Assembly (NCBI GenBank): GCA_964016885.1 | Contig: OZ024762.1 | Coordinates: 19,840,001 to 19,904,000 of the forward strand | DNA: 64,000 nt | DNA from: Eledone cirrhosa | Taxonomy: Eukaryota | Direction of reading: 5' to 3' | Shown here: in pieces, positions 1,605 through 48,810 of the stretch | How positions within the stretch are numbered: the stretch's first letter is position 1 | Layout: each line of letters starts with the position of its first letter | Program-made: the position numbers and the translations under genes | Notes under the pieces: model-generated | Databases searched by the model: none | Told to the model about the DNA's origin: nothing | Seen by the model: the letters and a program-made list of their open reading frames with translations, nothing else

Positions 1605-2009
1605 ATATATATATATATATATATACGGACGTAAAATGATGATGATGATGAGGATGTATGTGTATATACAAAAAGGTTTTGAGGATTCGGCCCCACGGCG
1701 CTCTCTGGAATAAGTGAGTGAAAAAGAAGATATATACTGGCGTCCACCTGGTTTGGCAATCTGGAAGACATGATGATTGCAACAAGATCATGTGATGAGA
1801 GTTATGTTAGTAGGTTCTCATCAAGTTCATTGTTTCTGAGGAAGACTGATATGTATCTAGGATATTGTGACAAGAAATACGTGGTGACATAACCACTATG
1901 TCCCAGTCAAAATATCAATTTACCATGGTCAATCAACCCTCTGAAACGATAGTAAAACAAAAAATTAATTAAGAATCTATCTTTGTATTTTTTTTTATTT
2001 TCGTTGTTC

Positions 2010-2070
2010 AATACACACACACACATGTGTGTACATATGTATGAATATATATAAACACATATGCAAGCAC

Positions 2071-2142
<72 letters not shown>

Positions 2143-2286
2143 GATTGTACATGTGTGTATATATGTATATATACACACACACACACACACATGTGTGTAC
2201 ATATGTATGAATATATATATATAAACACATATGCAAGCACGTGTGTATATATATATATATATATATATAAACACATATGCAATCAC

Positions 2287-2339
<53 letters not shown>

Positions 2340-2501
2340 CATACGATTGTACATGTGTGTATATATGTATATATACACATACATACACAGTTTCCATATA
2401 TTGAAACAAAGATATAAAATTTCAATCTATTTGCTAGACCTGAAGTGTGTATGTATGTGCATATGTTTGTGTATGTATGTGTGTGTGTATATGTATGTAT
2501 A

Positions 2502-2532
<31 letters not shown>

Positions 2533-2560
2533 GCATATATATATATATGCATATATATGC

Positions 2561-2614
<54 letters not shown>

Positions 2615-2622
2615 GTGTGTGT
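2010..2622. repeat. Compound (TA)n/(CA)n microsatellite with internal duplications
   Basis: Dinucleotide runs; explains the YI/HT/CV-repeat ORFs. Confidence 0.95.
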
Positions 2623-2992
2623 GTCATCTCACCAAACCACTTCAAGATGCCATTATTTTTTTCCCCTTTCTTAATTTACATAATGTAATATATTGGTTGA
2701 CAGGAATCTGTGATGTGTTGAAATTGGAATATTGAAGATGTCATAAAGGGCCCTAGGTGGGACTTTGTGATGGGAAAGCTTCTTTAATTTGTTGGGATAT
2801 ATTAAAATCTATTCTGAGAGACTAGTTTCAGACCCCCTTTTTTTTTTTCTTGCTTGTGGGCAACTCAGAACGGTTGGTGTGTCCAAAGATGGTGACTCCT
2901 GTAAAGAAATAATAGAAGAGATCTTTTAACCCCTTTGATACCAAAACACCTCCCTCTGTTTTTATAATATATTAATCCTTTAGTATTTACAT

Positions 2993-3415
2993 TACATGCG
3001 ATGCTGCATGGTAGCAACTGCAGAGGATATGCAACAGCTGGAGAGAAATGAGGCAAGCATGCTCCGTTGGATGTGCAGTGTCAATGTGCGTGAACGACCC
3101 ACCATGGATGTGTTGAGAGAGAAACTGTGTCTGAGAGCGATAGAATGTAGTGTGCTAGAGAAGAGACTGAGGTGGTATGGACATGTGATGGAGGATGACT
3201 GATGAGTGAAGAAGTTCCAGGTGAAGGAAGACGTGGTAGAAGTAGACCACGAAAAACATGGGCGGAGGTGGGGAGAACAGACCTCAGATTGCTGAAGCTC
3301 ACGGTGGAGATGACGAAGGATCGTGACAAGTGGAGAGATGCTTTGCTGAATAGGACCCGTCTCACCCTTGCAAGCAGGGAAAAGCGGACGTAAAATGATG
3401 ATGATGATGATGATT
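2993..3415 (+). mobile_element. RTE-clade LINE 3' fragment with (TGA)n tail
   Basis: Translates to LERNEASMLRWMC...RLRWYGHVM...GRSRPRKTW, homologous to the C-terminus of the 46.5-48.4 kb RT; ends GGACGTAAAA(TGA)n. Confidence 0.9.
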
Positions 3416-3609
3416 ACTCTATATTTACTATTGTATTTTCACACTAAAGGCTTTATCTCACATAATATTGAATCTATGAGATTTTGAAGTTATTTGTTTT
3501 GAGAACAATACCTTAACGTCAGTATGAGTGGCTGGTTACAGCCAGTTTTAACAGAAAGAGCTGAGAGATTTCTGGCCAGATACGGCCAGTTTAAATGCTA
3601 ATGGGTTAA
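3416..3609 (+). mobile_element. piggyBac-like MITE (family P), left-truncated
   Basis: Same internal sequence as 25291-25790; ends TAAATGCTAATGGG-TTAA. Confidence 0.8.
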
Positions 3610-3644
3610 GCTCCTTGTTTAAAAAAAAAAAAGCTTCCTTGTTT

Positions 3645-4085
3645 CATCATCATTTTACATTCGTTTCTCTGTGTTTGCATGGGTTGGATAGGTCCTTTTC
3701 TCTCTAGTTGTTGCATTCTTTCATCATTTTCTCTGTGAGTCTCAGCAATCTGATATCAGCTCTCACCACCTCCGCTCAAGTCTGTCTATGTCTACCTCTA
3801 CAGCGGCTTCCTTCCACTGACATATCCTGGCACTTCTTCACTCAGTGATTATCATCCATCCGCATCACATGTCTGTACCAACACAGTCTTCTCTCTTGCA
3901 CACCATTTTGGATTCTTCTTAAATCTAGTTTCTCCTTCAGTTCATTCAAGCTTTACCTCTCTCTCACATTTCCGTTGCACATCCAACGAAGCATGACTGC
4001 TTCATTTCTCTCCAACTTATGCATGTCCTTTGCAGTCACTGCCCATCTTTCACTATCATGCAGCATCACACTTTGCACATGACAT
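3645..4085 (-). mobile_element. Degenerate RTE LINE 3' fragment
   Basis: Reverse complement encodes LERNEAVMLRWMC-like and YRHVMRMDD-like segments; CAT tail at 3645-3653. Confidence 0.8.
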
Positions 4086-4096
4086 GGCGTCATATA

Positions 4097-4775
4097 TATT
4101 TATCTAAAAACCTTCCATCATAATTTTATGTAAGAGCCTTTGTTAAGTTATATTCCAAATACCAACTTAATGAGAAACTAAGTTATTTGACTAAATCTCT
4201 CCAAATTCTTGACTATTTTCCAAATTATTTGAAAATTATAGGCAGTGTCTTTCATTAAAAATATATTAATGAAAAATTTAAAGTGTGTGTAAGAACCTTT
4301 GTTAAGTTATGTTCCAAATGCTGGTTGAATGAGAAAGTTAGCTTTATTACTAAACCTTTCCAATTTTTTGTTATTTTCAAAATTATTTGAAAATTATAGG
4401 CAGTGTCTTTCATTAGAGAATATGGCAAATGTTTTTCATTAGAAAATATATTAATGAAAAAGTTGAAATGTGTGTGTTTATCTAAAGTCCTTCCATCCTG
4501 ATTTCATGTAAGAACCTTTGTTAAGTTATGTTCCAAATGCTGGCTTAATGAGAAAGTTACTTATATTACTAAACCTTTCCAATTTTTTGTTATTTTCAAA
4601 ATTATTTGAAAGTTATAGACAGTGTCTTTCACTAAAAGTATGTTAATGAAAAATGTAAAGTGTGTGTAAGAACCTTTGTTAAGTTATGTTCCAAATGCTG
4701 GCTTAATGAGAAACTTAATTATATTACTAAACCCTTCCAAATTCCTGTTTATTTTCAAAATAATTTGAAAACTAT
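4097..4775. repeat. Tandemly amplified AT-rich dispersed repeat (MITE family M), ~4 partial units
   Basis: TAAGAACCTTTGTTAAGTTATGTTCCAAATGCTGG... recurs ~every 170-220 bp; homologues at 11370-12444 (reverse) and 34630-34860. Confidence 0.75.
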
Positions 4776-5367
4776 TGACAGTACCACCACCACCGTCATC
4801 ACTATCGCCACCATCACCACCACCGCCCTCTCCAATACCATCACAAACATCACCGTTCTTTATTTACACACACACACACACACACACACACTTTCCTTAT
4901 GGACATTTCAATTTTCTAAAGCCCAATTAGAAATTTCTTTATTTCGGGATACTGCCTATATTTTGGCTACAATATTTCTATGACCATATTTTTAAAATAT
5001 TTTTTCTGGAAACCAATTCCTTAATTCAATTTTCTACAAAATATTCCTTTATTTGCCTTTATAGTTCTTCTTCATTTTTCTAATTTTCTATTGGCAAATA
5101 TTGTTGCCTATGTTTATTACAATTCCACAATTGGAGATTGGTTGAATAGAGCTGGAATTCTATAGAAATTCAAACTCTATGGAAGTTACCAGTACTGCTG
5201 CTATATTGTTCAACACTCTTAATTATTATTATTATTGTTGTTGTCGTTGTCGTTGTCGTTGTTGCTGTTGTTGTTGAACTCTTGATGATTTATTGGTTGT
5301 CTACTTGTATATAAACGTGTGTGTGTATGTATGCACATATATACACACACACATATATATATGTGTG

Positions 5368-5455
<88 letters not shown>

Positions 5456-5460
5456 CATAA

Positions 5461-5526
<66 letters not shown>

Positions 5527-5563
5527 GTATATGTGTATATATATATATATATACATATGTATA

Positions 5564-5594
<31 letters not shown>

Positions 5595-5705
5595 GTGTAT
5601 GTGTGTTTGAAAATTAGATTATGTGTGACTATGTCATGTGTTAGTTTTGGTGTATTGCAGCGTAAACCATTCAATTATATTCTGTATTTATATTTCTTTC
5701 CCTCC

Positions 5706-5779
<74 letters not shown>

Positions 5780-5889
5780 TTCCCTGTCTCTCTTTCTCGT
5801 TCACTCTCTATATCTTTCTCTCTAGAACGTTATATTTATTTACTTTACCTGTTATGTTCTTTCATTATTCTCATCATCGTTAACGCAGG

Positions 5890-6880
5890 TGTGTGTCCGA
5901 GGAGGAGGAGCGTGTGAGGGTGTGGGAGAGGGCTTGAGAGATCTAGTGGTTTGACTTACTACGTATGTGTGTGTGTGTGTATGAGTTAGAAGATAGCGTG
6001 GCATGTGTGGGAGAGAGAGAGCTAGCGGTTTGTCTTATTCAAGGTTTGTTTGTGTGTGTCTGCGTATGTGTGTGTGTGTGTGTGTATGTGTGTATATATA
6101 TATATGTGTGTGTGTTTGAGAAAGAGGAGGTGGGGTGGTAGAGATACAGGGATTTGTCTTATTCCAAGTGTGTACGTGTGGTGTGTGTGTGTGTGTATCA
6201 GAAGAGAAGTGGTGGAGGTATAATGGTTTGTCCATTTCTGAGAGTGTGCGTGTGTTTATGTATGTATGTGTGTGTGTATGTGTGTGTGTGTGTGTGTGTA
6301 TATATGTGTGTGTGTTTGAGAAAGAGGAGGTGGGGTGGTAGAGATACAGGGATTTGTCTTATTCCAAGTGTGTACGTGTGTGTGTGTGTGTATCAGAAGA
6401 GAAGTGGTGGAGGTATAATGGTTTGTCCATTTCTGAGAGTGTGCGTGTGTTTATGTATGTATGTGTGTGTGTGTATGTGTGTGTATATATATCAGAGGAG
6501 GAGGGGGTGTGGAGTGGTAGTGTTACAATGGTTTGTCTTTTTCTGAGAGTATGTGTGGGTGTGTGTCTGTGTGTGTGTATCAGGAGGAGGGGGTGTGGAG
6601 TGGTAGTGTTACAATGGTTTGTCTTTTTTCTGAGAGAGTATGTGTGTGTCTGTGTGTGTGTATCAGGAGGAGGGGGTGTGGAGTGGTAGAGTTATAATGG
6701 TTTGTCTTTTTTCTGAGAGAGTGTGTGTGTGTGTATCAGGAGGGGGCGTGTGGAGTGGTAGAGTTATAATGGTTTGTCTTTTTTCTGAGAGTGTATGTGT
6801 GTGGGTGTGTGTGTATGTGTGGGTGTGTCTGTCTTGGAAGAGGAGGGGGTGATGGGGGGATGGTAGATACAGTGGTTTGC
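5890..6880. repeat. Degenerate GT/GA-rich minisatellite (two ~200-bp units plus four ~75-bp units)
   Basis: Repeated GGAGTGGTAG...AATGGTTTGTCTT...CTGAGAG separated by (GT)n. Confidence 0.85.
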
Positions 6881-7107
6881 CATAGGAGTTCCCTCAGTAT
6901 TTTTTTGTATCTGTGGGAGGGTCACCGGGGTGGGTGATTGAAATCCTCGGACATACCTTTGATGGGGTCCTATCAAAAGCAACAGTCTCTAATTGATCTG
7001 GCTGGATCTCCAAGTATGACCAACCAAGCTCATTAATCTCAACTTGGAATAAAAACTGTGTCTATGGGAAGAAGATATTGAATTAATTGGTCCAATTTGT
7101 GGTACTG

Positions 7108-7995
7108 GATCATCATCATCATCACCTTAGTCATCATCTTAGCCATCATGACTTTTGTCGTCATTATCTTCATCATCATCATCGTCGTCATTGTCATCAT
7201 GGCCGTCATCACCATCACCAACGTCATCATCACCATTATCTTAGCCATCATGACTTTTGTCGTCATTATCTTCATCATCATCATCACCATCATCGTCATT
7301 GTCATGATGGCCGTCATCACCATCACCAACATCACCATCATCTTAGCCATCATGACTTTCATCATCATTATATTTATCATCATCATCGTCATTGTCATCA
7401 TGGTTGTCATCACCATCACCAACGTCATCATCTTAGCCATCATGACCTTTGTCGTCATTATCTTCATCATCATCATCGTCATTGTCATCATGGCCGTCAT
7501 CACCATCACCAACGTCATCATCACCATCATCTTAGTCATCATCTTAGCCATCATGACTTTTGTCGTCATTATATTTATCATCATCATCGTCATTGTCATC
7601 ACGGTTGTCATCACCATCACCAACGTCATCTTTGCCATCATCATTGCCATCACCATTGCCATCACCATTATCATCATCATCATCATCATCATCACCATCT
7701 TCGTCATAGTCATCATCATCATCATCATTGTCATTGTTATGATAACAATCATCTTCCTCATCGCCATCACCATCATCAGTATTATTTTTGTCATCGACAT
7801 CATTGTTGTGATAGTCATCATCATCATCATCATCGCCATCACCATCATCATCGCCATCATCATTATCATCGTTCATTTCATCATCACTGTCACCATCATC
7901 ATCTTCATCATCATCATGACTATCATCATTATTATCTTAGCAATCATCATCATTGTTGCTATAATAATCATTATCATTGTCATCACCATCATCAG
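7108..7995. repeat. (CAT)n-derived higher-order repeat
   Basis: CAT/CAC/CGT triplets with ~110-130-bp recurring unit CTTAGCCATCATGACTTTTGTCGTC. Confidence 0.9.
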
Positions 7996-8545
7996 AAGAC
8001 ACCATGCTTTGCAGCAAAGAGTTACGGCCCTTTATGTTCTGGGTTCAAATCTTGCCGAGGTTAACTTTGCCTTTCATCCTTACAGGGTCGATAAAATAAA
8101 GTACCAGTAATACACTGGGGTAATTGCTGGCCTTGTGCCAAAAGTAGAGACAATTATTACAGGGTTGATAAAATAAAGTACCAGTAATACACTGGGGTAA
8201 TTGCTGGCCTTGTGCCAAAAGTAGAGACAATTATTACAGGGTTGATAAAATAAAGTACCAGTAATACACTGGGGTAATTGCTGGCCTTGTGCCAAAAGTA
8301 GAGACAATTATTACAGGGTTGATAAAATAAAGTACCAGTAATACACTGGGGTAATTGCTGGCCTTGTGCCAAAAGTAGAAACAATTATTACGGGGTTGAT
8401 AAAATAAAGTACCAGTAATACACTGGGGTAATTGTTGGCCTTGTGCTTAAAGTAGAAACAATTATTACAGGGTTGATAAAATAAAGCACCAGTAATACAC
8501 TGGGGTAATTGCTGGCCTTGTGCCAAAAGTAGAGACAATTATTAT
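7995..8545 (+). mobile_element. SINE family B with its 3' 77-bp segment tandemly amplified 6x
   Basis: B-box-like GGTTCAAATC then CTTTGCCTTTCATCC; unit TACAGGGTTGATAAAATAAAGTACCAG...GTAGAGACAATTAT repeats with 77-bp period (8081-8543). Confidence 0.9.
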
Positions 8546-8664
8546 CTTTCTCATCATCATCAACCTGCGATAATCATCATCATTGTCATCACCATCCTCA
8601 TCATCATCATCACCTTTGTCAGTGCCATCATCACCATCATCATCATCATCTTAATCATATCATT

Positions 8665-8822
8665 ACAGCCCTTTACGTTTCGAGTTCAAGTCCCACCAAA
8701 GTTAACTTTCCCTTACAGCCTTACGGGGGTCGAGAAAATAAAGTACCAGTCATGCACTGGGGTCGATCTAATCAACTTTCCCCTCCCCTACCTAAATTTG
8801 TGCCTAAATCAGAAACAATTAT
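8665..8822 (+). mobile_element. SINE family B copy
   Basis: GAGTTCAAGTCCCACC...GGGGTCGAGAAAATAAAGTACCAG. Confidence 0.8.
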
Positions 8823-8823
8823 C

Positions 8824-8940
8824 TTAACCTTCAGCATGCTGAGTTATTTTATGAATTATTTCCTTTGACACTGTACTATTGTATTCAGGGGAGATTACTC
8901 TATTGTCGCAATTTGTTGCTGACAGCGTATTAAAGGTTAA
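8824..8940. mobile_element. Short TTAA-flanked MITE (piggyBac-like)
   Basis: TTAA-CCTT...AAGG-TTAA ends; left end similar to the reverse complement of 54350-54415. Confidence 0.6.
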
Positions 8941-8944
8941 TCAC

Positions 8945-9480
8945 AATCATCGTCATTTTAAGACCACTTTCGATCCTGGAATTGGTTGAACAGATCAGGT
9001 TATCAGAATTTGAAACAAGGATGACCAGGGAATCAAATTTTGTGCATACGTTCCATAATTCGGCATGGTTCCTACAGCTGGATACACTTCATAATCCCAA
9101 ACCACTCTTGTGAGAGGCTGCATTTTATCATGGCCCCAGCACGTCCACTTTACAGCATGGACTGGGTGCACTTTATCATCTACCCAGCACTGCAACTTTG
9201 CAGAGTGGACTGGGCGCATTTTATCATTGCCCCAGCATTGCCACTTTGCAGAGTGGACTGGATGCATTTTATCATTGTCCCCAGCATTGCCACCCTGCAG
9301 AGTGGACTGGAGGCATTTTATCATTGTCCCCAACATTGCCACTCTGCAGAGTGAACTGGGGGCATTTTATCATTGTCCAAGCATTGCCACTTTGCAGAGT
9401 GGACTGGGGGCATTTTATCATGTCCCCAGCATTGCCACCCTGCAGAGTGAACTGGGTGCATTTTATCATGTCCCCATAAA
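8945..9480 (-). repeat. RTE/SINE 3'-end remnant containing a ~49-bp tandem array (9110-9475)
   Basis: Reverse complement has GGTTGGGATTATGAAGTGTATCCAGCTGTAG (homologue of GGTTGGTGTTAGGAAGGGCATCCAGCTGTAG); unit CCAGCATTGCCACTTTGCAGAGTGGACTGGGCGCATTTTATCATTG. Confidence 0.8.
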
Positions 9481-23357: not shown

Positions 23358-23796
23358 TATATGTAACGAAGATCACTAGTATTAAGTCAATGTTCTCCGG
23401 CCAACATCTAGCTCACTCAATGAATCTGCCGAATTGCAGTAATGTAGCCACAACCAGCTGTTCAGTGTGCACACATTTAGTTAGCAGTTAGGGTGGCTGT
23501 GTTTTTGTAGAGATAAAAGTAAACAGCTCAAGTCCTGGACGATATCATTTCTCTGCAACATAACTTCACAAATACAGATATTAGATCTGCAATGTTCAGA
23601 AAGTCACGTAATATCAGCAGATATATATATATGTATATATATGTAAGAGGTGAGTTTTATTGTAGTACAATAAAGCAATGCAGATATCGGATAAGTAGCA
23701 CTCTACAGTTTGTAGGACTGGAGTATAAATAATAATATGTTGATTTAAAACTGCACTATTCACAAGTGTGTTTTAACCTTCATATAATGTCTCCCA

Positions 23797-23865
23797 ATTT
23801 TATCTGATGAAAACGCAAATGTTATTGCATGATGATATTTGTTTTTGAAATGCGCATAATAAAAT
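23797..23865 (+). ncRNA. Minimal type-I hammerhead ribozyme motif
   Basis: Stem I ATTTTAT/ATAAAAT; core CTGATGA (23804-23810); ~16-bp stem II; GAAA; palindromic TGCGCA stem III; TA cleavage site. Confidence 0.7.
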
Positions 23866-23925
23866 ACATGGAACTCTTTTAACCATCTTTTGATCTTATA
23901 TATATATATATATGTATATATATAT

Positions 23926-28059: not shown

Positions 28060-29612
28060 TGTTGTTGTTTGTAACACTTTTGTTCTGAAAGATGTTATAT
28101 CAACACTATACTAAAAGAGCGAGCCATGGCCAATAGCCAAAGGTCCTTTGGGTCATCCTTTCTCCTTCAACTTTCTAACACTCTCTTTAGAATCCTTGCT
28201 ATTCCTAGCAAGGCTGTTTTCTGCAACAATCCCGTTATACTAAAAGAGCAAGACATGGCCAATAGCCAAAGGTCTTTTGGGTCATCCCTTCTCCTTTAAC
28301 TTTCTAACACTCTCTTTAGAATCCTTGCTATTCCTAGCAAGGCTGTTTTCTGCAACAATCCTGATATACTAAAAGAGCAAGACATGGCCAATAGCCAAAG
28401 GTCTTTTGGGTCATCCTTTCTCCTTCAACTTTCTAACACTCTCTTTAGAATCCTTGCTATTCCTAGCAAGGCTGTTTTCTGCAACAATCCCGTTATACTA
28501 AAAGAGCAAGACATGGCCAATAGCCAAAGGTCTTTTGGGTCATCCCTTCTCCTTTAACTTTCTAACACTCTCTTTAGAATCCTTGCTATTCCTAGCAAGG
28601 CTGTTTTCTGCAACAATCCTGTTATACTAAAAGAGCAAACCATGGCCAATAGCCAAAGGTCTTTTGGGTCATCCTTTCTCCTTTAACTTTCTAACACTCT
28701 CTTTAGAATCCTTGCTATTCCTAGCAAGGCTGTTTTCTGCAACAATCCTGTTATACTAAAAGAGCGAGCCATGGCCAATAGCCAAAGGTCTTTTGGGTCA
28801 TCCTTTCTTCTTCAACTTTCTAACACTCTCTTTAGAATCCTTGCTATTCCTAGCAAGGCTGTTTTCTGCAACAATCCTGTTATACTAAAAGAGCAAACCA
28901 TGGCCAATAGCCAAAGGTCTTTTGGGTCATCCTTTCTTCTTCAACTTTCTAACACTCTCTTTAGAATCCTTGCTATTCCTAGCAAGGCTGTTTTCTGCAA
29001 CAATCCTGTCCTGATGGTAATTCCTAGCTTCTCAAGCCATGCATCTAACCTTCTACTAACTACTCCCAGTACACCAACCCCAATTGGTACCACTTCTACA
29101 TGTCTAACCTGCTAACTACTCCCAGTACACCAACCACAATCGGTACCACTTCTACATGTCTAACCTACTAACTACTCCCAGTACACCAACCACAATCGGT
29201 ACCACTTCTACATGTCTAACCTACTACTAACTACTCCCAGTACACCAACCACAATCGGTACCACTTCTACATGTCTAACCTACTACTAACTACTCCCAGT
29301 ACACCAACCACAATTGGTACCACTTCTATGTGTCTGATTCTCCACAGTTTCCTGATTTCCCTCTTCAGTTCCTGGTATTTCTCAACTTTCTCACTTCCCA
29401 ACTCATCCACCCTGTGGCCCCACCGTGAAGCAATATCCATAATACATACCTTGTTATTCTTCTTTTCTACAACAACAATGTCAGGCTTTCTAGCCACGAT
29501 AAAATGGTCACACTGGATGGTCATGTCCCACAAGATCTTATATCGTTCATTTTCAGCCACCGTTTCCAGTTGGCGTTCACACCATTTCTCACTTCTGCTC
29601 AGGTCATACTTA
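28060..29612 (-). mobile_element. R4/Dong-like RLE LINE 3' region with internal tandem amplifications
   Basis: Minus strand: ENERYKILWDMTIQCDHFIVARKPDIVVVEK...DIA...EKVEKYQEL...PIVVGVLG...LQKTALLG; 129-bp unit x7 (28107-29009) and ~57-bp unit x5 (29045-29330). Confidence 0.9.
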
Positions 29613-31670: not shown

Positions 31671-34615
31671 TTCTTCGCCCACTTATTCCTGAGAGGGTCA
31701 TTGAGGCATGGGGTAGAGTCCTCAAACACTCCTTCCAGTGGGTCCTGTCAGAAGCAACCATCTCCAACTGATCCGGCTGGATCGCCAACCATCTTGTTCG
31801 GGGTCTATCCCTGAGTCTCTTGCCAGCTGGTTTTTGTCCGTAAAATCTCTCCAGCAATTCTTTCCTGAGACATTGAGACATTCTAACCCCATGCCCGTAG
31901 TATCAGAGCTGTGATCTCTCTCAATTTCATTTTTAACTAATTATGTCCGACCATCTTGCTCAGGGTCTGCCTCATGGGCCTCTTGCCAGCTGGTTTTTGT
32001 CCGTAAAATCTCTCCAGCAATTCTTTCCTGAGACATTGAGACATTCTAACCCCATGCCCGTAGTATCAGAGCTGTGATCTCTCTCAATTTCATTTTTAAC
32101 TAATTATGTCCGACCATCTTGCTCAGGGTCTGCCTCATGGGCCTCTTGCCAGCTGGTTTTTGTCCGTAAAATCTGTCCAGCAATTCTTTCCTGAGACATT
32201 GAGACATTCTAACCCCATGCCCGTAGTATCAGAGCTGTGATCTCTCAATTTCATTTTTAACTAATTATGTCCGACCATCTTGCTCAGGGTCTACCTCATG
32301 GGCCTCTTGCCGGCTGGTTTTTGTCCGTAAAATCTCTCCAGCAATTCTTTCCTGAGACATTGAGACATTCTAACCCCATGCCCGTAGTATCAGAGCTGTG
32401 ATCTCTCTCAATTTCATTTTTAACTAATTATGTCCGACCATCTTGCTCAGGGTCTGCCTCATGGGCCTCTTGCCAGCTGGTTTTTGTCCGTAAAATCTCT
32501 CCAGCAATTCTTTCCTGAGACATTGAGACATTCTAACCCCATGTCCGTAGTATCAGAGCTGTGATCTCTCAATTTCATTTTTAACTAATTATGTCCGACC
32601 ATCTTGCTCAGGGTCTACCTCATGGGCCTCTTGCCGGCTGGTTTTTGTCCATAAAATCTGTCCAGCAATTCTTTCCTGAGACATTGAGACATTCTAACCC
32701 CATGGCCGTAGTATCAGAGCTGTGATCTCTCAATTTCATTTTTAACTAATTATGTCCTACCATCTTGCTCAGGGTCTACCTCATGGGCCTCTTGCCGGCT
32801 GGTTTTTGTCCATAAAATCTCTCCAGCAATTCTTTCCTGAGACATTGAGACATTCTAACCCCATGTCCGTAGTATCAGAGCTGTGATCTCTCTCAATTTC
32901 ATTTTTAACTAATTATGTCCGACCATCTTGCTCAGGGTCTGCCTCATGGGCCTCTTGCCAGCTGGTTTTTGTCCGTAAAATCTCTCCAGCAATTCTTTCC
33001 TGAGACATTGAGACATTCTAACCCCATGCCCGTAGTATCAGAGCTGTGATCTCTCTCAATTTCATTTTTAACTAATTATGTCCGACCATCTTGCTCAGGG
33101 TCTGCCTCATGGGCCTCTTGCCGGCTGGTTTTTGTCCGTAAAATCTCTCCAGCAATTCTTTCCTGAGACATTGAGACATTCTAACCCCATGCCCGTAGTA
33201 TCAGAGCTGTGATCTCTCAATTTCATTTTTAACTAATTATGTCCTACCATCTTGCTCAGGGTCTGCCTCATGGGCCTCTTGCCGGCTGGTTTTTGTCCGT
33301 AAAATCTCTCCAGCAATTCTTTCCTGAGACATTGAGACATTCTAACCCCATGCCCGTAGTATCAGAGCTGTGATCTCTCAATTTCATTTTTAACTAATTA
33401 TGTCCGACCATCTTGCTCAGGGTCTACCTCATGGGCCTCTTGCCAGCTGGTTTTTGTCCGTAAAATCTCTCCAGCAATTCTTTCCTGAGACATTGAGACA
33501 TTCTAACCCCATGCCCGTAGTATCAGAGCTGTGATCTCTCTCAATTTCATTTTTAACTAATTATGTCCGACCATCTTGCTCAGGGTCTACCTCATGGGCC
33601 TCTTGCCAGCTGGTTTTTGTCCGTAAAATCTCTCCAGCAATTCTTTCCTGAGACATTGAGACATTCTAACCCCATGCCCGTAGTATCAGAGCTGTGATCT
33701 CTCTCAATTTCATTTTTAACTAATTATGTCCGACCATCTTGCTCAGGGTCTGCCTCATGGGCCTCTTGCCAGCTGGTTTTTGTCCGTAAAATCTCTCCAG
33801 CAATTCTTTCCTGAGACATTGAGACATTCTAACCCCATGCCCGTAGTATCAGAGCTGTGATCTCTCTCAATTTCATTTTTAACTAATTATGTCCGACCAT
33901 CTTGCTCAGGGTCTGCCTCATGGGCCTCTTGCCAGCTGGTTTTTGTCCGTAAAATCTCTCCAGCAATTCTTTCCTGAGACATTGAGACATTCTAACCCCA
34001 TGTCCGTAGTATCAGAGCTGTGATCTCTCTCAATTTCATTTTTAACTAATTATGTCCGACCATCTTGCTCAGGGTCTGCCTCATGCGCCTCTTGCCGGCT
34101 GGTTTTTGTCCATAAAATCTGTCCAGCAATTCTTTCCTGAGACATTGAGACATTCTAACCCCATGCCCGTAGTATCAGAGCTGTGATCTCTCAATTTCAT
34201 TTTTAACTAATTATGTCCTACCATCTTGCTCAGGGTCTACCTCATGGGCCTCTTGCCAGCTGGTTTTTGTCCATAAAATCTGTCCAGCAATTCTTTCCTG
34301 AGACATTGAGACATTCTAACCCCATGCCCGTAGTATCAGAGCTGTGATCTCTCAATTTCATTTTTAACTAATTATGTCCTACCATCTTGCTCAGGGTCTA
34401 CCTCATGGGCCTCTTGCCGGCTGGTTTTTGTCCGTAAAATCTCTCCAGCAATTCTTTCCTGAGACATTGAGACATTCTAACCCCATGCCCGTAGTATCAG
34501 AGCTGTGATCTCTCAATTTCATTTTTAACTAATTATGTCCTACCATCTTGCTCAGGATCTACCTCATGGGCCTCTTGCCGGCTGGTTTTTGTCCATAAAA
34601 TCTGTCCAGCAATCT
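31671..34615 (-). repeat. 161-163-bp satellite (~17 copies) seeded from a Rex3/Expander-like LINE 3' end
   Basis: LINE terminus at 31671-31925; unit TCTTGCCAGCTGG...CAGAGCTGTGATCTCTC...CCATCTTGCTCAGGG recurs at 31818, 31981, 32144 ... 34573. Confidence 0.95.
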
Positions 34616-43685: not shown

Positions 43686-43789
43686 TATATGTATATATAT
43701 ATATATGTGTGTGTATATGTATATGTGTATATATATGTATATATATATGTGTATATATATATATATGTGTATATATATATATATATATA

Positions 43790-44670
43790 TCATCATCACC
43801 GTTTTACGTCCGTTCTTCCACGCTAGCATGGGTTAGACGGGTTGTCCTGTTGTGGGCAGTGTCTGGTCGGCTGACCATGCCTTGCTCATACAGGAACTGA
43901 TCTGGCTTGATTTCTACAGCTGGATGCCCTTCCTAACACCAACCTCATTTACAGTGAGTGCTGGGTGCTTTTTCGTGGCGCCTACACGTCCACTTTACAG
44001 TGTGGGCTGGGTGCTTTTTTGCCGTGGCACCTCCACGACCACCTTGCGGTGGGGGGGGGGGGGCATATTGTTTATATGCTTCAGCATGTACCCATGGGAG
44101 GTCGGGTACCCTGTATTACTGCGTGACGCCAGAAGTCACGGTCGTGTGTCATTGACTTTGAGAGGTGTAGTTGGGTAAGGTCGGCTTTTATCACCTCATC
44201 CCAAGTCATCTTGGGTCTCCCCACTCCGCGGTTTCCATCAACTTCTAGTGCTCTGCACCTTTTTATGCAGCTGTCATCCTTCATACGCATCACATGTCCA
44301 TACCAGCGTAACCGCCTCTCCTGCACGCAGCATTTGATTCCTCTTATGCTCAGTCTCTCTCTCAATTCATTTATGCTTTGTCGTTCACGTATATTACTGT
44401 TACACATCCATCGGAGCATGCAGGCTTCGTTTCTCTCTAATCTACGTAAGTCTTCCACCTTCAGCGCCCAGGTCTCACTACCATGCAACATCGCTGTTCG
44501 GATACACGCATCACACAGTCTGCCTTTCATTCTGAGGGAGAAGCCTTTTGCAGCTAGCAGTGGTAGTAGTTCCCTAAACTTCTTCCATCCCGTTCTTACC
44601 CTAGTTATTGTACTTTCTGAGCACCCACCTCCGTTGCTAATTCGGTCACCTAGGTAGCAGAAGCTGTCTA
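43790..44670 (-). mobile_element. Young RTE LINE, 5'-truncated, near-identical to 47821-48702
   Basis: Translation [11 protein letters not shown]...RPPMGTC differs from the long copy at only two residues; same 3' UTR. Confidence 0.95.
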
Positions 44671-44917
44671 GGTGACCGAATATATATATTCGGTCACCGA
44701 ATATATATATATATATACACATATATATAGACACACATATATATATATGTGTGTGTGTGTATATATATATGTGTATATATATGTGTGTGTGTGTGTATAT
44801 ATATGTGTATATATATGTGTGTATGTATATATATATGTGTATATATATGTGTGTGTATATATATATATATATGTGAGTGTATATATGTGTGTATATGTAT
44901 GTGTGTGTGTGTGTGTA

Positions 44918-45573: not shown

Positions 45574-45605
<32 letters not shown>

Positions 45606-45649
45606 TACTTCAAAATATTTAAAAATATAGACATTCATGTGATCAAATA

Positions 45650-45715
45650 TATTTTATTATACATATTTCAGAGGTACTGAGGTATTTCAACAGTACGTCC
45701 TCATCAGATAAAATA
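45650..45715 (-). ncRNA. Minimal type-I hammerhead ribozyme motif
   Basis: Minus strand: TATTTTAT-CTGATGA-GGAC GTACTG[11-nt loop]CAGTAC CTCT-GAAA-TATGTA-TA-ATAAAATA; perfect 8-bp stem I. Confidence 0.72.
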
Positions 45716-45787
45716 AATTGATGTCTGACATACCTTGACTGTGTTGGTGGTTAAAATTCATTATATATATATATATATATATATAAA

Positions 45788-45830
<43 letters not shown>

Positions 45831-45845
45831 TATATATAAAATCTG

Positions 45846-45903
<58 letters not shown>

Positions 45904-46051
45904 TACATATATCTAAGTAGAACGGATATTTAATTTGTTGGGAATTCAACAAATATAAATGTTTATAACTGATTCAGAACACTCGACAGCTTTCTGGAGT
46001 AAATATTCAATGATATTAAATAAATGGAAACTATATTTATAAAATCATATT

Positions 46052-46113
46052 TATTCTATTATATATATTTCAAGGGTACCAAAAAGTTTGGTACGCTTTC
46101 ATCAGATAAAATA
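46052..46113 (-). ncRNA. Minimal type-I hammerhead ribozyme motif
   Basis: Minus strand: TATTTTAT-CTGATGA-AAGC GTACCAAA CTT TTTGGTAC CCTT-GAAA-TATATA-TA-ATAGAATA. Confidence 0.72.
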
Positions 46114-46186
46114 CAAAGAGTGTTTTATAAATTTTGACATATATTCATACTTACATAAAACTATATATAGATATGTATGTATATAA

Positions 46187-46556: not shown

Positions 46557-46558
<2 letters not shown>

Positions 46559-48410
46559 GTGTGTCAGAGATAGTTGTGATGTCATTGGAGAGAAGTGTAT
46601 CCGGAATGATAAAGGTGAGCTTGCCCTCACAAGTGCTGAGAAGAAAGATGCATGGAAGAGTCATTATGATAGATTACTAAATGAGGAGAATGCATGGGAA
46701 GAAGAGACCCTACCCCACGTAGACCCTATAGAGGGACCAGCAGTACAAGTCAGCGGCAGCGTAGTAAGTAAGGCAATCAGAGATATGAAGATAGGGAAGG
46801 CAACCGGTCCATCGGGTATAGCTGCCGAGATGCTGAAGGCATCTGGGTCTGTAGGTCACACTATAACCACACGTATCGTTAACCAGGTAATACTAGAGGG
46901 GGCCATACCAAAAGATTGGTGCAGTAGCATCATTGTCAACTGCTACAAAGGTAAAGGCGATGCACTAGATAGAGGAAACTATAGAGGTATAAAGTTGATG
47001 GACCAGGTCATGAAAGTAACAGAAAGAGTTATAGCACAGCTGATTAGGGACCGGGTGAATATAGACGAGATGCAATTTGGGTTTGTACCAGGGAAAGGCA
47101 CCACTGATGCGCTCTTCCTTGTGAGGCAATTACAGGAAAAGTACCTAGCTAAAAGTAAGCCACTCTACTTGGCATTTGTCGACCTTGAGAAAGCCTTTGA
47201 CAGAGTTCCACGTGCAGTAATCTGGTGGGCTCTTAGAAAACTAGGAGTAGATGAATGGCTTGTGAAAGCGGTACAAGCCATGTATAGGGGAGCAGTCAGC
47301 AAAGTTAGGATTGGCAATGAGTATAGCGAGGAATTTAGCGTACAGGTTGGGGTCCACCAGGGCTCTGTTCTTAGCCCTCTCCTGTTCATCATAGTCCTGC
47401 AGGCAATAACGGAGGAGTTTAAGACCGGATGCCCATGGGAACTCCTGTATGCTGATGACCTCGCACTCATAGCTGAATCTATGGTAGAACTAGAGAATAA
47501 ATTCCAAACCTGGAAGCAGGGACTAGAGAGAAAGGGCCTCAAAGTCAACATGACAAAGACTAAGGTCCTTATAAGTAGACGAGAAAACAGAACCCAGATC
47601 CCCTCAGGGAAATGGCCTTGCTCAGTATGTAGGAAAGGTGTAGGTAGGAACTCCATTCTTTGCCCCAAATGCAAACAATGGGTACACAAGAGATGTAGCG
47701 GGATCTCAGGAAGCTTAATTAAGAATGTAGGATTCACATGCAGCAGCTGTGCTGAAACAGCAAGCAAACAGCCACAGGAAACAAGTACCACCAATCTCTG
47801 GGAGGGCCCTGTAGAAACAGTAGACAGCTTCTGCTACCTAGGTGACCGAATTAGCAACGGAGGTGGGTGCTCAGAAAGTACAATAACTAGGGTAAGAACG
47901 GGATGGAAGAAGTTTAGGGAACTACTACCACTGCTAGCTGCAAAAGGCTTCTCCCTCAGAATGAAAGGCAGACTGTATGATGCGTGTATCCGAACAGCGA
48001 TGTTGCATGGTAGTGAGACCTGGGCGCTGAAGGTGGAAGACTTACGTAGATTAGAGAGAAACGAAGCCTGCATGCTCCGATGGATGTGTAACAGTAATAT
48101 ACGTGAACGACAAAGCATAAATGAATTGAGAGAGAGACTGAGCATAAGAGGAATCAAATGCTGCGTGCAGGAGAGGCGGTTACGCTGGTATGGACATGTG
48201 ATGCGTATGAAGGATGACAGCTACATAAAAAGGTGCAGAGCACTAGAAGTTGATGGAAACCGCGGAGTGGGGAGACCCAAGATGACTTGGGATGAGGTGA
48301 TAAAAGCCGACCTTACCCAACTACACCTCTCAAAGTCAATGACACACGACCGTGACTTCTGGCGTCACGCAGTAATACAGGGTACCCGACCTCCCATGGG
48401 TACATGCTGA
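46557..48410 (+). CDS. RTE-clade LINE ORF, 5'-truncated: reverse transcriptase plus PHD-like finger plus C-terminal domain
   Basis: Uninterrupted frame with [47 protein letters not shown] motifs; no APE endonuclease; first 46 aa of the track ORF are (TA)n artefact. Confidence 0.95.
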
Positions 48411-48714
48411 AGCATATAAACAATATGCCCCCCCCCCCCCACCGCAAGGTGGTCGTGGAGGTGCCACGGCAAAAAAGCACCCAGCCCACACTGTAAAGTG
48501 GACGTGTAGGCGCCACGAAAAAGCACCCAGCACTCACTGTAAATGAGGTTGGTGTTAGGAAGGGCATCCAGCTGTAGAAATCAAGCCAGATCAGTTCCTG
48601 TATGAGCAAGGCATGGTCAGCCGACCAGACACTGCCCACAACAGGACAACCCGTCTAACCCATGCTAGCGTGGAAGAACGGACGTAAAACGGTGATGATG
48701 ATGATGATGATGAT
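46557..48714 (+). mobile_element. Young RTE LINE insertion including 3' UTR and (TGA)n tail
   Basis: ORF followed by ~280-nt UTR ending GGACGTAAAACGG(TGA)n; inserted in TA-rich microsatellite. Confidence 0.95.
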
Positions 48715-48810
48715 GCAAATATATATATATATATTATATAAATATGCATATATATATATATATATATATATGCAAATATATATGTGCAAATATATATGTA
48801 TATATATATA

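Follow-up and report, generated by a model that had tools for sequence, protein, structure and literature searches.

The two hammerhead motifs at positions 45650 to 46113 of the stretch analysed (64,000 nt of Eledone cirrhosa contig OZ024762.1, hereafter the window) appear to be the pseudo-LTR (pLTR) ends of two different high-copy Penelope-like element (PLE) families: A, which carries Hydra-clade motifs, and B, which is related. We assign a probability of about 0.88 to this reading, under which both ends were likely inserted independently, as short 5′-truncated copies, into one (TA)n tract and are likely inert at the locus. Because A and B come from different families and likely landed separately, the pair is likely ordinary transposon debris, not a self-excising circular-RNA unit. 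Independence of the two landings is something we infer; target-site duplications are unreadable in (TA)n. The features of the locus are as follows.

46113-46052, minus strand: hammerhead motif A, type I, loop III TATATA, predicted cut at 46060/46059
45715-45650, minus strand: hammerhead motif B, type I, loop III TATGTA, predicted cut at 45658/45657
45907-46141, minus strand: family A stub (pLTR plus tail), probable 5′-truncated 3′ end of Penelope-like family A with Hydra-clade motifs; 235 nt, starting 82 nt upstream of the predicted cut
45907-46000, minus strand: optional tail of family A, ~93 nt, between the short and long 3′ ends; ~46000 is where inverted partners and the majority of 3′ pLTRs end
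45602-45760, minus strand: family B stub (pLTR, short form without tail), 5′-truncated, 159 nt
45762-45906, no strand: (TA)n microsatellite tract, probable common insertion target of A and B
45574-45601, no strand: (TA)n run adjoining the B copy on its 3′ side, read from the sequence
46557-48410, plus strand: 5′-truncated LINE ORF with RT and PHD finger (Pfam RVT_1 E 3.8e-32, PHD E 6.5e-6)

Direct reading of the minus strand upheld the two motifs of the original prediction, each with the full hammerhead core and an 8-bp stem I, and with predicted cuts 402 nt apart. In motif A, stem I is TATTTTAT/ATAGAATA, including one G-U pair, and CUGAUGA (46105-46099) is followed by stem II (46098-46072), GAAA (46071-46068), loop III and UA. 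Stem I of motif B is TATTTTAT/ATAAAATA, with CUGAUGA at 45707-45701, stem II at 45700-45670 and GAAA at 45669-45666. Both motifs have the core CUGAnGA...GAAA...UH with helices I, II and III in type I order. The (TA)n part of the spacing, put at ~150 nt in the original prediction, measures ~145 nt (45906-45762). Stem II does differ between the motifs while still pairing, as had been said, but the helix quoted (6 or 8 bp) is preceded in each by a 3-bp base (AAG/CTT, GGA/TCT) and a C.C mismatch, which had been omitted. A palindromic stem III was correct for TATATA and not, strictly, for TATGTA, which is self-complementary only via two G-U pairs. The proposed comparison with shuffled sequence also came out in favour of the motifs: over 300 block-wise dinucleotide shuffles of the window, the hammerhead descriptor gave 0.02 matches per window at a stem I of at least 4 bp and 0 at 8 bp or more. 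Rfam did not flag either motif, with no hammerhead among 10 matches to the motif region at E ≤ 10 (Rfam models may not cover minimal variants) or among the 150 listed of 414 matches to the whole window. The Rfam matches in the window were rejected as microsatellite-driven miRNA matches below the gathering score.

By sequence comparison, A and B are the ends of two separate high-copy families and not repeats of one unit. The regions around the two ribozymes are ~71% identical in an alignment of the window pieces. The family A piece (46141-45907) was found at 94-97% identity over 228-238 nt in at least 39 other genomic places (query 45905-46150; 40 of 1,776 first-look candidates scored), and the family B piece at 94-98% identity in at least 42 other full-length places (query 45600-45765; 2,061 first-look candidates). 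Exact 23-mers covering the 5′ half of the core have 2,829 (A) and 5,883 (B) occurrences in the 3.0-Gb assembly, against 0 for the reversed controls; a 23-mer downstream of A's cut, common to sister subfamilies, occurs 14,408 times. The 3′ end abuts (TA)n in nearly all of the A and B copies printed, at one of two points, and an inverted shorter copy lies head-to-head upstream in ~19 of 29 other A loci. The window copies differ from the commonest column letters at ~8 (A) and ~4 (B) positions, against medians of 4 and 3 in the best-matching copies. Inside the motifs, changes private to the window fall in loop II only (46086, 45682), and both cores are intact.

The window holds only the ends of these elements. 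In other genomic copies, an ORF of up to 699 aa without a stop encodes an RT followed by GIY-YIG. The ORF search used a 352-aa frame (P0001) at locus L013, for which there were 74,879 first-look candidates in the genome, 115 of them scored. Among the best 20 ORF loci, the family A piece lies downstream in sense orientation in 14 (10 with an intact motif), at a distance of 0.5-1.3 kb; it lies in sense just before the ORF start, ending at the tail, in 4, and inverted upstream in 9. Long copies of the families consist of pLTR plus tail, RT-GIY-YIG ORF, a UTR of ~1.1-1.2 kb, pLTR and (TA)n, and are frequently preceded, head-to-head, by an inverted truncated copy. Locus L164 shows the complete plan, with pLTR and tail, ORF, UTR and a pLTR without tail, and pLTRs, inverted truncated partner and optional tail are found in L164, L163 and L165. 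In full-length copies, the long end (tail) lies ~50 nt before the first Met (L163 sequence). An early reading from L013, with the ribozyme antisense to the Penelope ORF, was rejected; the copy concerned is the inverted partner, and the 3′ pLTR is sense. For family B, the link to an ORF is one broken copy, at L161, where a broken RT-EN ORF is followed by a 1.24-kb UTR, pLTR and tail; this ORF has ~45% identity to family A (42-62% in pieces). Locus L162 has the family B UTR and pLTR, and the ORF is absent. The original prediction had pointed to a Penelope origin for minimal type I motifs with a palindromic stem III, and the RT-GIY-YIG ORF links in long copies bear this out.

Natural copies of the family A ORF carry RW[R]-AFH, DKT, CxCX5C, VVY..YVG with a single cysteine, CxxC-E, CxH and YxDD. 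Across eight family A copies, DKT is present in 4/8 (DKI in one, N-terminus absent in three) and CxCX5C-P in 7/8, with RWR or RWC for the RWK-type motif. The family B ORF fragment has CxCX5C-P, CxxC-E and CxH; its N-terminal part is absent. An AlphaFold model of the C-terminal 449 aa of the family A ORF had a mean pLDDT of 74. Model residues 314-429 matched I-TevI (Z 9.7, rmsd 2.2, 88 aligned), T4 EndoII (Z 7.8) and the UvrC GIY-YIG domain (Z 6.7), and residues 13-191 matched RTs at up to Z 7.9. The RT fold matches were retroviral, group II intron and DGR RTs, and TERT was absent among the 50 matches listed. Foldseek found no match to the predicted structure at E ≤ 0.001. Pfam gave nothing on P0001 or three family A ORFs, and GIY-YIG, below cut-off, on one of five homologues. 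None of the 38 homologues retrieved carried a name, and ESM Atlas offered, as a lead only, a cluster in which 31% of the members have GIY-YIG at 0.95. By motifs and architecture, the putative C-terminal GIY-YIG nuclease and N-terminal RT make the parent an EN+ PLE.

Family A most likely belongs to the Hydra clade, an assignment made from motifs and not from a tree. Features of this clade according to Craig et al. 2021 (PMC8557442) are the Hydra motif set, canonical hammerheads and (TA)n insertion. In line with that description, the families here have one ORF with RT then GIY-YIG, RWK-like and DKT motifs, a CxCX5C linker and no CCHH; CxxC and CxH surround the catalytic E and N, a sense hammerhead lies near the 3′ end, and (TA)n and inverted truncated partners recur. 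They differ in a length of ~3.4-3.6 kb, a UTR of >1 kb, RWR in place of RWK and a tail of ~93 nt, where '<3 kb' units are typical of Hydra and published tails measure 30-40 nt. The hammerhead of Hydra-1_Obim from Octopus bimaculoides, as given there, has a 6-bp stem I and loop III ACCA-A-TGGT, unlike A and B, which were therefore taken, by eye, to be other families.

A literature search found no paper on these particular families, though Repbase or Dfam entries may already list them. On cephalopods or Octopus together with hammerhead ribozymes, only Craig et al. 2021 (PMC8557442) and a twister paper were found, and the main text of a 2026 Octopus vulgaris repeat annotation has 0 mentions of ribozyme, hammerhead or Hydra. 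Families A and B appear to be unlisted Hydra-type PLE families. Further Penelope-like ORFs adjoin A or B copies at L161:5068-7898 and L078:3-911, one of them GC-richer and ~44% identical to family A; this suggests that several PLE lineages nest in the same targets.

The motifs themselves resemble the minimal PLE type I hammerheads described by Cervera and de la Pena 2014 (PMC4209133): helix II is long and helix III a tiny palindrome, most of the thousands of motifs stand alone and derive from truncated PLEs, pairs on opposite strands lie 100-700 bp apart, and one genome holds many sequence families. In contrast to the 4-5 bp described there, helix I here has 8 bp; helix II has the 3-bp base and C.C mismatch, and the G10.1-C11.1 pair is replaced by A-U in A and G-U in B.

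Copy ends were then compared with the predicted cuts. For 30 B loci picked via the 5′ half of the core, the 3′ end was of the short kind in 21 and the long kind in 9, and at the cut in 0. For 30 loci picked downstream of the cut, 3′ ends lay at +52 to +61 in 20, at +147 to +154 in 9 and at +96 in 1. There are thus two fixed 3′ end points, ~56 and ~150 nt past the predicted cut, and a (TA)n run was present at one of the two in 30/30 B loci. As 3′ ends lie past the cut and never at it (0/30), the templates were likely uncleaved. Contigs from runs X1-X3, which are of unknown kind and represent one sample at most, have loose ends in (TA)n at positions 46003 and 45907, and cannot reveal RNA ends.

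The 5′ ends were less sharply placed. Among 30 B loci, 11 start at -104 to -117 and one at +9, with none within 8 nt of the cut; for A loci picked by similarity, 22/30 start at -111 to -126. The 5′ pile-up coincides with a predicted hairpin and could represent an RT stop or a transcription start, to which subfamily divergence from the single reference copy may add. In the window, A starts at -82 and B at about -103; the core is kept in 27/30 A-group loci. Copies picked at the ORF start gave 5/30 near the cut, scattered at -12, -6, +2, +8 and +19, so that some use of cleaved RNA is possible. The 5′ pLTRs of full-length family A copies at L164/L208 and L202 start 2 nt after or 6 nt before the predicted cut, which could reflect cleaved templates or chance truncation. 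The proposal that the ribozyme cut sets the copy ends was rejected, given 0/30 3′ ends and no 5′ pile-up at the cut.

A mechanism for the stubs can be outlined. The element's GIY-YIG nuclease would nick (TA)n, and the RT would start at one of two internal RNA sites, giving the short and long ends, and stop early. The product would be ribozyme-bearing stubs of 160-290 nt from uncleaved RNA. Under this scheme, A would have used the distal start, keeping the tail, and B the proximal start. The AT-rich stretch after each end in the parent could pair with a (TA)n primer, and the shared (TA)n target would let stubs of all families accumulate in the same tracts, in either orientation. The start at two internal sites is proposed by analogy with an in vitro result for Poseidon, the PAc element of Anolis (Frangieh et al. 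2024, PMC11167929), which has two internal RT start sites, with uncleaved RNA as the main substrate. Carrying two-site internal RT start over from Poseidon to this clade is an analogy across clades. PAc is also alike in its two fixed 3′ ends around an optional tail, both downstream of the cut, in its AT-rich targets and in insertion from uncleaved RNA. The PAc ribozyme extends over the start codon, and RT initiation lies 111-118 nt into the ORF, whereas both ends here precede the first Met (by ~145 and ~50 nt).

The comparison across copies argues that the motif is probably a ribozyme at family level. Further genomic copies with covariation, a point raised in the original prediction, were found: in addition to the 23-mer counts given above, stem II pairs switch among A-U, G-C and G-U in 159 distinct motifs, with the C.C mismatch mostly kept, although copies inside a family are not independent. 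Without any pairing imposed on it, loop III proved self-complementary in 25 of the 27 motifs sampled (chance ~6% each), the palindromes being of only three distinct kinds and so reflecting few independent events. The monomer fold lies above the free fold by 3.6 (A) and 5.1 (B) kcal/mol, and for the two-strand double hammerheads (A.A, B.B, A.B) the penalty relative to the free cofold is 1.5-3.1 kcal/mol, with energies below those of the two monomers added together; neither tertiary contacts nor assistance from proteins enter into these values. They fit the dimer model of minimal PLE hammerheads, which are described as cleaving weakly in vitro (PMC4209133); PLE hammerhead dimers are also credited to Lunse et al. 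in PMC6765202. In active parents, the predicted ribozyme would act in dimeric form, joined via the palindromic stem III and probably aided by protein.

Whether the pair in the window could itself be active was judged from the same calculations. Here, a minus-strand read-through RNA would fold A and B, brought together by chance, into a mixed double hammerhead, cut at both sites and free a 402-nt RNA, perhaps circularised. The cores are intact and private changes are confined to loop II, and the A.B structure is valid in all 44 pairs, canonical or G-U, with two crossed stems I (8 bp each) and a stem III of 8 bp that includes one G-U. With the strands isolated, A.B is about as stable as the homodimers (-24.8 vs -26.8 and -21.8 kcal/mol). 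In the read-through RNA, however, the mixed fold exceeds the minimum by 8.8-13.1 kcal/mol, according to which ends are taken, and the probability of stem I is ≤0.04 and that of B stem II ≤0.06. Also missing from the A copy are the 40 nt further upstream in which most short copies have their start; minimal PLE hammerheads are described in PMC4209133 as cleaving poorly even as dimers, and PLE RNA-seq showed no reads ending at the cut (PMC11167929). Activity at this locus is therefore very unlikely on these grounds.

To place the pair in its genomic background, a blind sample of 80 10-kb stretches at round coordinates on 22 contigs (800 kb) was searched. It held 43 hammerhead motifs in 23/80 stretches, against 0-1 in each of 10 shuffles, and 27 of the 43 were of the A/B build. 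The density of ~54 motifs/Mb extrapolates to roughly 160,000 genome-wide, an estimate with wide error because motifs cluster. If so, it would rank among the highest reported for an animal (126,247 motifs are given for axolotl in PMC7229834), and it compares with 2,000-9,000 in the genomes described in PMC4209133. A third hammerhead of the window, alike in build, from core to cut at +23804-23858 with loop III TGCGCA, lies in a (TA)n-flanked stub at 23645-23897 (+) of another high-copy family. That family was matched in 11/80 sampled stretches, and, by prediction, its palindrome does not pair with that of A. The window's three motifs (47/Mb), set against ~54/Mb in the sample, therefore represent background, and the pair itself is ordinary for this genome.

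Neighbouring motifs were mostly head-to-head. Within 600 nt, the sample contained 5 same-family head-to-head pairs and 6 mixed-family pairs (1 on the same strand), with 0 same-family direct tandems among the 43 motifs. Among the first 100 exact matches on C1, neighbours within 1 kb comprised 7 head-to-head and 0 direct for A, and 7 head-to-head and 3 direct (65, 65 and 205 nt) for B. The A-then-B arrangement was looked for on C1:1-77.55 Mb and in fetched loci: 0/48 exact A motifs on C1:1-77.55 Mb had an exact B motif within 11 kb, and copy numbers alone would give ~1.2 exact A-then-B pairs genome-wide in a 450-nt band. In 60 B loci taken in genome order, some overlapping, a motif of another family occurred on the same strand at 429-526 nt in 5 and on the opposite strand at 258-350 nt in 4. 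At locus L231, B is preceded by an A-related motif at a distance of 482 nt, which closely mimics the window pair. Direct family B tandems occur at L180/L181 (C1:13822132 and 13822337, 205 nt apart) and as a 65-nt triplet at C1:63697747-63697877, and these rare tandems on C1 are better retrozyme-like candidates than the window pair. At least four other hammerhead builds were seen (L096, L097, L098, L099, L104, L155), mostly as head-to-head pairs, for example with a 5-bp stem I and loop III GGAC/GAAC, or with loop III CCACTGG.

These numbers lend themselves to a bolder scenario, which we also regard as very improbable. Some 160,000 stubs on one (TA)n target would yield thousands of mixed pairs, and where the stem III palindromes are compatible (UAUAUA with UAUGUA, not with UGCGCA), a mixed double hammerhead in read-through RNA would excise a small RNA circle; the locus would then be a retrozyme at birth, with the palindrome as pairing code. 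If true, mixed-family pairs excising circles would offer a route for retrozymes to arise from PLE ends.

A single chimeric insertion, in which the RT switched from family B RNA to family A RNA so that both stubs arrived together, would account for their common strand and the kinship of the two families, and PLEs are described as typically showing complex insertions, whether tandem or inverted (PMC8557442). It is nevertheless highly improbable, with ~145 nt of (TA)n between the A 3′ end and the B 5′ end, as if each had primed on target DNA, and with no strand bias among mixed-family neighbours (5 same, 4 opposite).

The retrozyme-like tandem unit of the original prediction, a 402-nt monomer between two ribozymes propagating in tandem via circular RNA as a non-LTR retrozyme, shares with that class its size (170-400 nt), a low GC content (19%) and type I topology (PMC7229834), ribozymes a few hundred nt apart and, as described in PMC7229834 and 10.64898/2026.07.22.740005, kinship with PLE pLTRs, and the three direct B neighbours on C1 point the same way, but it is scarcely credible. 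Metazoan retrozymes are described in those sources as arrays in which a single monomer recurs in direct tandem, the ribozymes being mostly canonical, and as expressed in circular form; here no 150-450-nt monomer is directly repeated with its ribozyme, the ribozymes belong to two families ~71% alike, each with thousands of dispersed copies ending in their own (TA)n, and the spacer is not a repeated monomer. Both families also trace to ORF-bearing elements and so are not non-autonomous, and the neighbour counts above, mostly head-to-head, together with the ~1.2 A-then-B pairs predicted by copy numbers alone, stand against tandem spread.

The two families themselves are of modest use: their young copies are very numerous, and their 3′ ends fall sharply at two points. 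They would suit tests of two-site internal priming outside Poseidon and of PLE hammerhead cutting in vivo.

The remainder of the window was surveyed as well. The RT ~450 bp from the pair, to which the original prediction had linked it, belongs to a LINE (RVT_1 plus PHD), and the Penelope ORF had no tblastn match in the window. By its domains, the LINE ORF, of 617 aa without a stop, with an internal PHD finger and beginning directly after (TA)n, is not part of the hammerhead elements. Its 3′ part and flanking sequence form a 914-nt inverted duplication (43757-44670 and 47821-48734, 98% identical), attributable to recent rearrangement or to an assembly artefact; its arms enclose the hammerhead pair, and a small foldback is present at 44647-44700. 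Three tandem arrays, in which the hammerhead descriptor found no motif, lie at 31788-34613 (163-nt), 28107-29009 (129-nt) and 479-1399 (70-nt), and are young, with 97% matches.
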